IMG/VR virus record: IMGVR_UViG_2541047688_000002 | Length of the DNA: 10,082 bases | Reading direction: 5' to 3' (one strand) | Source of the DNA: a virus | Taxonomy: Duplodnaviria > Heunggongvirae > Uroviricota > Caudoviricetes | Shown here: positions 7,008 to 8,663 of the stretch, piece after piece | How the letters are laid out: each line of letters begins with the position of its first letter | Numbering within the stretch: the stretch's first letter is position 1 | Translations under genes and position numbers: made by a program | Notes under the pieces: model-generated | The model's database searches: none | Told to the model about the DNA's origin: nothing | What the model saw: the letters and a program-made list of their open reading frames with translations, nothing else

Positions 7008-7148
7008 TCATACTCCTGTTCCTGTCAGGGTTTTGGCGTAATTCTTCAGTATTCGGTAATCGGTCAAAACAGAACCGAGGAAACGATATAAGCGCAGACG
7101 CCCCCAGCGGTGGCGAAGAAGTTCTGCCATATTAAACTCAAACATCAT
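7008..7148 (-). CDS. ylcG: YlcG-like small protein (46 aa) of the lambdoid nin region
   Basis: Translation MMFEFNMAELLRHRWGRLRLYRFLGSVLTDYRILKNYAKTLTGTGV matches DLP12 YlcG as recalled; its start overlaps the rusA stop. Below the ORF-track length cutoff. Confidence 0.6.
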   Translation of the reverse strand: MMFEFNMAELLRHRWGRLRLYRFLGSVLTDYRILKNYAKTLTGTGV

Positions 7149-7196
7149 TCATTCCCCATTTCGGTGATGGTCAGTTCCAGCCTCCCACCTTTGGTA
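7145..7196 (-). pseudogene. rusA: 3' remnant of rusA (Holliday-junction resolvase), last 16 codons only, truncated by IS911
   Basis: Minus-strand translation immediately left of the IS911 end is TKGGRLELTITEMGNE-stop, matching the RusA C-terminus as recalled. The rest of the gene is not found on the other side of the IS. Confidence 0.6.
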
Positions 7197-7232
7197 TGAA
7201 GTGGTTTACTGAATTTGGCCACCTGAACAGAG
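7197..7232 (+). repeat. IS911 left terminal inverted repeat (IRL)
   Basis: Begins TGAAGTGG; pairs with the right end at 8411-8446. Confidence 0.8.
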
Positions 7233-7268
7233 GTGATATGCTCACCTCAGAACAACACAGGTGCCATA

Positions 7269-7571
7269 ATGAAAAAAAGAAATTTCAGCGCAGAGTTTAA
7301 ACGCGAATCCGCTCAACTGGTCGTTGACCAGAATTACACCGTGGCAGATGCAGCCAGCGCTATGGATGTCGGCCTTTCCACAATGACGCGATGGGTGAAA
7401 CAATTACGTGATGAGCGGCAGGGAAAAACACCAAAAGCCTCCCCTATTACCCCGGAACAAATTGAAATCCGTGAGCTCAGGAAAAAGCTACAACGTATTG
7501 AAATGGAAAATGAAATATTAAAAAAGGCTACCGCGCTCTTGATGTCAGACTCCCTGAACAGTTCTCGATAA
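7269..7571 (+). CDS. orfA: IS911 OrfA (transposition regulator, HTH plus leucine zipper)
   Basis: [100 protein letters not shown], 100 aa, matches IS911 OrfA as recalled. Confidence 0.9.
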
Positions 7572-8416
7572 TCGGGAAACTCAGGGCGCGTTATCCTGTG
7601 GCCACTCTCTGCCATGTGTTCGGGGTCCATCGCAGCAGCTACAAATACTGGAAAAACCGTCCTGAAAAGCCAGACGGCAGACGGGCTGTATTACGCAGCC
7701 AGGTACTTGAACTGCATGGCATCAGCCACGGCTCTGCCGGAGCAAGAAGCATCGCCACAATGGCAACCCAGAGAGGCTACCAGATGGGGCGCTGGCTTGC
7801 TGGCAGACTCATGAAAGAGCTGGGGCTGGTCAGCTGTCAGCAGCCGACTTACCGGTATAAACGTGGTGGTCATGAACATGTTGCTATCCCTAACTACCTT
7901 GAACGGCAGTTCGCCGTGACCGAGCCAAATCAGGTGTGGTGCGGTGATGTGACCTATATCTGGACGGGTAAGCGCTGGGCGTACCTCGCCGTTGTTCTCG
8001 ACCTGTTCGCAAGAAAACCAGTGGGCTGGGCCATGTCGTTCTCGCCGGACAGCAGGCTTACCATGAAAGCACTGGAAATGGCATGGGAAACCCGTGGTAA
8101 GCCCGTCGGGGTGATGTTCCACAGCGATCAAGGCAGTCATTATACGAGCAGGCAGTTCCGGCAGTTACTGTGGAGATACCGGATCAGGCAGAGTATGAGT
8201 CGGCGTGGAAACTGCTGGGATAACAGCCCAATGGAGCGCTTCTTCAGGAGTCTGAAGAACGAATGGGTGCCGGCGACGGGCTATGTAAGCTTCAGCGATG
8301 CAGCTCACGCAATAACGGACTATATCGTTGGATATTACAGCGCACTAAGACCGCACGAATATAATGGTGGGTTACCACCAAACGAATCGGAAAATCGATA
8401 CTGGAAAAAACTCTAA
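7269..8416 (+). CDS. orfAB: IS911 OrfAB transposase, made by a programmed -1 ribosomal frameshift at A-AAA-AAG (7520-7526); the OrfB frame runs from 7526 to 8416
   Basis: Slippery heptamer in the OrfA frame (L-K-K). The -1 frame continues [42 protein letters not shown]... and carries DDE-transposase motifs (track ORF 7598-8416). Confidence 0.8.
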
Positions 8417-8446
8417 CTCGGTGGCCAGTTTTTGTTGACCACTTCA
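8411..8446 (-). repeat. IS911 right terminal inverted repeat (IRR)
   Basis: Revcomp begins TGAAGTGGTCAACAAAAACTGGCCACC. Confidence 0.8.
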
Positions 8447-8663
8447 CAACGCCGTTAAGCACATAGCTAACGCAAAACAACAGGATGTAATACATCCAGT
8501 AATGAGGAAGGATTTCTGGACTATGCAGGTTTATCCATTCTTTTACGCTTACCGGCATAACAATAATCAATATGATCAGGATGATTAGCATATGAATCAA
8601 CTGTTTAAGTGTCATTCCTTGCAGGAAAAAATGCATTAGTTCCTGCCACCATGAGTTGTTCAT
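8447..8663 (-). pseudogene. 5' portion (about 72 codons) of a small membrane-protein gene, apparently truncated by the IS911 right end
   Basis: MNNSWWQELMHFFLQGMTLKQLIHMLIILIILIIVMPVSVKEWINLHSPEILPHYWMYYILLFCVSYVLNGVVKW has two hydrophobic segments. The track ORF (8292-8663) continues into IS911 only by chance. Weak RBS. Confidence 0.3.

Follow-up and report, generated by a model that had tools for sequence, protein, structure and literature searches.

An IS911-like element at a probable deletion scar in a lambdoid prophage of Escherichia coli

We analyzed a stretch of 10,082 nt from the viral record IMGVR_UViG_2541047688_000002 (hereafter called the window), which carries the late arm of an E. 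coli lambdoid prophage, encoded mostly on the minus strand. At one site, remnants of the prophage genes rusA and sieB flank an insertion sequence (IS). The loss amounts to about 7.85 kb and extends from codon 104 of rusA to codon 73 of sieB; a single intact IS911-like element occupies the joint. Judged from the sequence and its relatives, it is very probable that an IS-associated deletion has crippled this prophage.

The flanks of the IS element in an intact relative

As the reference, we used the lambdoid prophage that is integrated at icd in E. coli ATCC 25922/M16807 (locus L008). Window positions 1–7196 align to it with 99.94% identity up to the exact junction base (L008 12625), and from window position 8447 onward the alignment resumes at L008 20476, on the same (+) strand and with 100% identity. 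In the reference, the two flanks are therefore not adjacent, but they are colinear and co-oriented, 7,850 bp apart, and neither junction carries an IS, which is the arrangement of an IS-mediated deletion scar. A reading of the window made from its sequence alone (the sequence-only reading) had held that this is not a simple insertion and had proposed a comparison with relatives; the colinear flanks bear it out.

To the left of the element, rusA is reduced to positions 7145–7196 (minus strand), which comprise the stop codon, the last 16 codons (TKGGRLELTITEMGNE) and one further base. These 52 of the 363 nt of the gene for the 120-aa RusA are identical to the 3′-end of rusA in the reference prophage, and the rusA stop codon overlaps the ylcG start by 4 bp, so that both the truncation and the overlap are as they had been described. 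The full reading frame of about 120 aa of a RusA Holliday-junction resolvase was not found, and the remnant is a gene fragment rather than a functional member of this group. To the right of the element, rusA is not continued, as had also been stated. Instead, positions 8447–8663 (minus strand) hold the 5′-fragment of sieB, i.e., its first 217 of 582 nt and 72 of 193 codons (Pfam SieB), identical to L008 20476–20692. No microhomology was found at the joints when the window was compared with L008.

The block that is absent between positions 7196 and 8447 contains, in the reference, the 5′-part of rusA, a DUF1364 remnant, ninX, ninE, an adenine methyltransferase gene, ninB, ren, P, O, cII, cro, the gene for a LexA-type (cI) repressor, two accessory genes, a small open reading frame (ORF), N, and the 3′-part of sieB. 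In M16807, the block corresponds to NZ_CP031256.1 3398625–3406474, and its gene content was taken from the annotation of this strain and from Pfam (for N, N_peptide). The window prophage belongs to the family of the Nissle 1917 'prophage 3', with which it shares identical protein accessions.

The IS911-like element at the joint

The element at the joint (IS copy 1, positions 7197–8446, plus strand) is a complete IS911-like element of 1250 bp, which the Prokaryotic Genome Annotation Pipeline (PGAP) labels ISEc52 and which is 100% identical to copies in M16807, Nissle 1917, and AHB22. It runs from TGAAGTGGTTTACTG to GTTGACCACTTCA. The terminal inverted repeats are imperfect (TGAAGTGG... and ...CCACTTCA, 27 nt, 78% complementarity), and the ends are 5′-TG and CA-3′. 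The orfA gene (7269–7571, plus strand) encodes a 100-aa OrfA with the Pfam domain HTH_Tnp_1, an A6G (A AAA AAG) −1 frameshift site lies at 7520–7526 (plus strand), and the orfB frame extends to position 8416 on the same strand (Pfam rve, E 1e-31), with a predicted OrfAB of 382 aa. The length of about 1250 bp with inverted repeats and the orfA/orfB frameshift arrangement are those of an IS911-like member of the IS3 family. Because orfA, the frameshift site, and a 382-aa OrfAB with its rve domain are all present, copy 1 appears to be intact and potentially active. The sequence-only reading had named the element IS911. Its IS911-like nature was confirmed. The window-type copies are labelled ISEc52, and copy 1 shares 94.2% identity over 1250 bp with a copy that PGAP labels IS911 (family); "IS911-like" is thus the safer name.

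The 3-bp flanks of copy 1 are GTA on the left (7194–7196) and CAA on the right (8447–8449), and the element therefore lacks a 3-bp target-site duplication, in accordance with the earlier description. Random 3-mer flanks agree only 1 time in 64, and the GTA/CAA mismatch alone proves nothing; the missing duplication gains its weight from the comparison of relatives and not from the 3-mer mismatch itself.

Reality of the joint

The window corresponds exactly to a single contig of scaffold KE698919.1 (GCA_000456205.1), a short-read draft. Its start lies just past an N-gap of 95 bases within the large-terminase gene, and its end, which is also that of the scaffold, lies inside a second IS copy; the split of the terminase gene in GCA_000456205.1 is a gap, not a mutation. 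In a draft scaffold that ends inside an IS, a collapsed or mis-threaded repeat might have joined two unrelated IS flanks, and a metagenome contig (L007; ENA ERZ4239635 NODE_7350, 1772 bp) shows that assemblers can mis-thread this very repeat. However, the independent, complete chromosome OZ039684.1 carries the same rusA′-IS-′sieB structure, with 3 mismatches in 10,082 bp. Because two independent assemblies, one of them complete, agree on the structure, an assembly artefact at the joint is unlikely, to the point of being scarcely credible; an assembly error at the IS boundaries, which the sequence-only reading had listed as a finding that would overturn it, is contradicted by the same chromosome.

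The frame of the sieB fragment reads on into IS copy 1 and yields a fusion ORF of 123 aa (8292–8663) that is unique to the right junction. An exact-protein look-up retrieved it from three public contigs, where it is called as a gene. The left, right, and copy-2 junctions of the window had no contiguous match in 5,426 complete E. coli genomes, the copy-2 junction had no match in the Genome Taxonomy Database (GTDB) representatives, and the actual left junction of the window was absent from IMG/VR.

Contig L007 also bears on a hybrid origin, in which IS exchange between different loci or prophages would have caused a large rearrangement with the missing block surviving elsewhere. In this contig, the IS/CAA-sieB junction is connected to yjhR, an IS site on the chromosome that in M16807 is about 1.4 Mb distant. 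If real, the contig would point to IS-IS exchange at copy 1. Yet L007 is a short-read contig with 7x coverage that runs through a multicopy repeat, and it most likely represents a chimeric assembly path. Moreover, both arms of the window match one reference prophage at 99.9–100%, they stand in native order in the complete chromosome, and reciprocal junctions were not found in any collection searched. A hybrid prophage is thus very improbable.

The second IS copy

A second, inverted copy of the IS begins at position 9663, at a distance of 1216 bp from copy 1, and corresponds to the partner copy 1.2 kb away that had been seen earlier. Its right-end 420 bp lie in the window (9663–10082, minus strand) and are 100% identical to copy 1 over these 420 bp. 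The inner copy of its 3-bp target-site duplication, ACT, is at 9660–9662, and in OZ039684.1, where copy 2 spans the window-equivalent positions 9663–13047, ACT is also present beyond its far end. The empty site in M16807 reads ...CTTCACTCGAGG... and contains a single ACT. Because ACT is found on both sides and the empty site is contiguous in M16807, copy 2 is an independent simple insertion between the DUF2528 gene and cIII. It is an unrelated, later insertion, and the proposed involvement of the partner copy had to be abandoned, as copy 2 has its own duplication at an otherwise unbroken site. The sequence-only reading had also suggested looking beyond copy 2; in OZ039684.1, ACT is followed there by cIII, kil, gam, bet, exo, and more genes in ancestral order and orientation.

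An identical inverted pair at a distance of 1216 bp can invert the DNA between its members, and an inversion or exchange between copies 1 and 2 might have swapped the flanks and displaced the early region. But the intervening segment (sieB′, ral, DUF2528) keeps its ancestral orientation towards both outer flanks, Q-ylcG and cIII-kil-gam-bet, as in IS-free relatives, and an exchange would have broken up the matched ACT duplication of copy 2 at its contiguous site. We regard this exchange as barely conceivable. From the earlier phrase "IS-mediated deletion or inversion", the deletion was upheld by the colinear flanks with 7,850 bp skipped between them, whereas the inversion was contradicted by the ancestral orientation of the intervening segment.

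A composite transposon formed by the inverted IS pair, with sieB′-ral-DUF2528 as cargo, was considered and rejected. Its outer flanks would be GTA versus ACT, copy 2 has its own ACT/ACT pair, and the supposed cargo has the position and orientation that are native to it in the prophage.

In OZ039684.1, copy 2 is split by an IS21-like element of 2131 bp (genes for IstA/IstB, ends TGTCA..., ATAA duplication). It is located at about 10838–12968 in window-equivalent positions, exactly at the start codon of orfA of copy 2, and presumably inactivates copy 2 in this chromosome.

Route of the deletion

For the deletion at copy 1, two routes have to be weighed. We lean slightly towards adjacent deletion rather than recombination between two IS copies. 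The element would first have entered the prophage at either of today's junctions or in the stretch between them. DNA beside one or both IS ends would then have been lost by transposase-driven adjacent deletion, a process in which one copy of the 3-bp duplication disappears and the IS end becomes joined to a distant site. This route is favored because it needs the fewest events and because such behavior is documented for the IS3 family. Among 68 IS150 (IS3 family) events in the E. coli long-term evolution experiment, 14 were accompanied by a deletion, 14 bp to 49 kb in size, and lacked a duplication; each of these 14 went back to an earlier insertion beside which adjacent deletions arose later and sometimes grew (PMC11708052).

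The other route would start from two direct IS copies, one in rusA (at GTA) and one in sieB (at CAA), between which RecA-dependent recombination excised the 7.85 kb and one of the IS copies as a loop. Its product would match precisely what is seen, a single IS bordered on the left by the flank of one insertion and on the right by that of the other. Insertions strike this region often, and those known in rusA (MS 124-1, at a distance of 19 bp) and sieB (AHB22, 141 bp) are co-oriented; IS-IS recombination is also listed as a frequent cause of missing duplications (PMC11708052). However, two insertions plus a recombination would be needed instead of one insertion plus one deletion, neither a single- nor a double-insertion parent was found in the collections searched, and all 14 of the 14 IS150 deletion cases in the long-term evolution experiment were adjacent deletions. 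This recombination is therefore the less likely route, although it is by far the strongest competitor of adjacent deletion.

A one-step insertion of the IS into a pre-existing or simultaneous break or deletion, without formation of a duplication, has been proposed for IS5 in E. coli C (PMC11708052), and absent intermediates would be compatible with it. It is unproven even for IS5, the IS150 cases are all explained by stepwise adjacent deletion, and sparse sampling explains the missing intermediates equally well. This mode of origin is improbable.

Several points weigh against a deletion scar formed in the proposed way. Synthetic ancestral junctions (IS/GTA-rusA and sieB-CAA/IS) were built and searched in the 5,426 complete E. 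coli genomes, IMG/VR, JGI metagenomes, and the GTDB representatives, and a simple IS insertion at the rusA GTA site or the sieB CAA site was not found in them. In the complete E. coli genomes, IS/GTA-rusA had no match, and the 33 apparent matches of sieB-CAA/IS were all two-piece matches that stem from IS copies at other nearby sites; IMG/VR, the JGI metagenomes, and the GTDB representatives contained neither ancestral junction. As no intermediate was found, we infer the order of events and the exact mechanism. The final sequence is identical under adjacent deletion and under recombination between direct IS copies. A relocation of the block within the source genome is unlikely by parsimony alone, and the size of 7,850 bp presumes that the ancestor resembled an ATCC 25922-type prophage across the lost block. 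The missing precursor does not disprove a deletion scar, and the original insertion may also have been inside the interval that is now lost.

Three known insertions were tested as precursors and rejected. The IS of MS 124-1 lies 19 bp off the rusA junction of the window, carries a GTTC duplication, and reaches no more than 97.5% identity. The target of the ATCC 25922 insertion (AAT, 8695–8697) is empty in the window. The sieB insertion of AHB22 is inside the deleted interval and would require deletions on both sides, so that it is not more parsimonious.

Other copies of the IS in the prophage family

The other copies of the IS in this prophage family fall into two groups. Six related copies have target-site duplications of 3 bp, occasionally 4 bp, and all of them have contiguous flanks and are thus simple insertions. 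Two are found in M16807, one with an AAT duplication 34 bp upstream of the sieB start and one with an ATG duplication in the DUF1382 gene. The second copy of Ec40743 is next to essD in the late region (CCT), the copy of MS 124-1 in rusA (GTTC), and that of AHB22 in sieB (CTA); the distances of the latter two were measured from the left and the right junction of the window, respectively. The sixth is copy 2 of the window, with ACT in OZ039684.1.

The second group comprises four copies without a duplication. In Ec40743 (L002 6527–7776), the left flank is a truncated ylcG, the right flank is the region upstream of ral, and roughly 8 kb are lost. In E5 (L003 8146–9395), the element lies between a site 35 bp upstream of an intact rusA and DUF2528, with a loss of 8,550 bp. 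The BEC1-S17 copy (L011 9099–10347) joins sieB to DUF2528, and 832 bp are lost. The copy of Nissle 1917 (L010 9298–10547) has the region upstream of sieB on its left and the middle of the integrase gene on its right. The rule that a missing duplication goes along with missing DNA holds in 4 of the 4 other duplication-less copies examined in the family, and in the window.

The family thus contains at least five independent duplication-less deletions. Three of them (window, Ec40743, E5) each take the whole block of immunity, N, and replication genes, and spare Q, the lysis genes, bor/iss, and the porin gene. We tentatively suggest that the icd-type lambdoid prophage family is eroded by this IS (ISEc52) time and again, in a convergent manner in separate E. 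coli lineages, but we hold this to be somewhat less probable than the opposite. If true, recurrent erosion would point to a regional target preference combined with selection that favors grounded prophages whose cargo is retained; otherwise, the pattern would be due to chance sampling.

At least five distinct IS insertion or junction sites are found within about 400 bp in or just upstream of sieB (window 8447–8697; L008 20334–20726), namely those of AHB22, the window, BEC1-S17, Nissle 1917, and ATCC 25922, and a further spacing occurs in ATCC 43896. This clustering may reflect a regional hot spot or a selection effect. All early-region copies examined have one orientation, with the left end towards Q. 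The window sequence AAT at 8695–8697 is the empty target of the ATCC 25922/M16807 insertion; therefore, the IS history of the window is independent of that of ATCC 25922 despite the prophage identity of 99.9–100%.

In E5, the left end of the IS is located 35 bp upstream of the intact rusA (L003 7748–8146). In E. coli K-12, IS insertions upstream of rusA activate the cryptic resolvase (rus suppressors of ruv).

Consequences for the prophage

At this locus, the cI-type repressor, cro, cII, N, O, P, and ren of an inducible lambdoid prophage all belong to the missing block, while Q is present. The gene content of the block suggests a joint loss of pL, pR, and the operators, of the repressor, cro, cII, and N, of O/P with the origin, and of ren and most nin genes. 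The prophage would thus be non-inducible and non-replicating and would confer neither immunity nor SieB exclusion, and rusA and sieB appear to be dead fragments. Retained are Q, the lysis genes, bor/iss, the porin gene, the terminase genes, and the distal pL genes from ral onward. The view that the prophage is defective for replication and immunity while its late arm is intact, put forward in the sequence-only reading, agrees with the position of O, P, cI, and N in the missing block and with the preserved Q-lysis-terminase region.

A deletion of the repressor alone would be expected to induce the phage and to be lethal, whereas its joint loss with the lytic promoters, N, and the replication genes would be tolerated. 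This tolerance may be the reason why the three independent deletions of the window, Ec40743, and E5 span the whole block.

For annotation, the prophage is best described as cryptic, with no repressor, N, O/P, or origin, and with rusA and sieB as fragments. The superinfection immunity and exclusion that come with the intact form of this prophage are probably gone from the strain, and the cargo genes bor/iss and the porin gene have been kept.

Neighboring genes

The late arm contains, in this order, the small terminase subunit gene, a TonB-like gene, bor/iss (plus strand), Rz/Rz1, and the genes for lysozyme and holin, the porin gene (plus strand), Q, and ylcG. The late antiterminator gene Q (quuD-like; 6539–6937, minus strand) is intact according to its ORF (Pfam Phage_antitermQ, E 7.7e-54) and is colinear with quuD of M16807. 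An intact ylcG ORF is present at 7008–7148 (minus strand), and YlcG is annotated at the matching place in M16807, E5, and MS 124-1. The sole differences between the window and OZ039684.1 are at positions 1327, 1337, and 1348, in a 22-bp segment of the small-terminase gene, and this cluster resembles the trace of a short recombination or repair event more than scattered mutation.

Right of the sieB fragment, ral (antirestriction; 8877–9077, plus strand; Pfam Ral, E 1.7e-48) and the DUF2528 gene (9260–9628, plus strand; Pfam DUF2528, E 1.8e-47) are intact and in ancestral orientation, as judged by synteny with a relative (L001). Between these two genes, an inverted repeat with 22-nt arms (82% complementary) is followed by a terminator-like hairpin with a T-run (9114–9161 and 9212–9233), which may be a terminator or processing site of the pL operon. 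A hybrid outward promoter at the right IS end that would drive ral was also considered; it was rejected, as a promoter scan found nothing there.

Comparison with known systems

DLP12 of E. coli K-12 is a cryptic lambdoid remnant at argU that also carries IS insertions. Its late-region set (quuD, ylcG, rusA, essD, rrrD, rzpD, bor, the porin gene, and nohD) is the same as that of the window. In contrast to the window, DLP12 occupies the argU site, its rusA is intact, and its losses are not at a rusA-sieB junction.

Close parallels are the Nissle 1917 'prophage 3' and the ATCC 25922/M16807 prophage, which belong to the same family as the window prophage, share many identical proteins with it, and have repeatedly been struck by the same IS. 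Like the window, Nissle 1917 has its own IS-flanked deletion without a duplication, which extends from upstream of sieB into int. However, Nissle 1917 keeps the repressor, N, O, and P and has lost the recombination/integration arm, whereas the window prophage has lost the immunity, N, and replication block and keeps ral onward. The Nissle 1917 'prophage 3' has been reported to be short (39.8 kb) and non-inducible, and its repressor to contribute to the resistance against lambdoid phages (PMC5987069). The IS-flanked loss into the integrase gene next to icd probably explains why it is short and non-inducible.

The IS150 adjacent deletions (PMC11708052) resemble the scar in the window in that an IS3-family element without a duplication is retained intact at the joint of a kilobase-scale deletion. 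They differ in that the earlier insertion was seen in the time series, whereas the order of events in the window was deduced, and in that the window element belongs to the IS911 group and not to the IS150 group. The defective lambdoid prophages of E. coli O157 Sakai have likewise been crippled by IS insertions and deletions while their cargo was kept, and IS629, another IS3-family member, has been linked to genomic deletions (PMC2669165, PMC9943667); the IS, the host lineage, and the prophages are other than those of the window. Events of this kind are a common and well-understood way in which prophages are crippled, and the window adds one further clean example of IS-driven prophage decay that opens no new question. 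What is mildly interesting is the frequency with which this IS erodes this prophage family.

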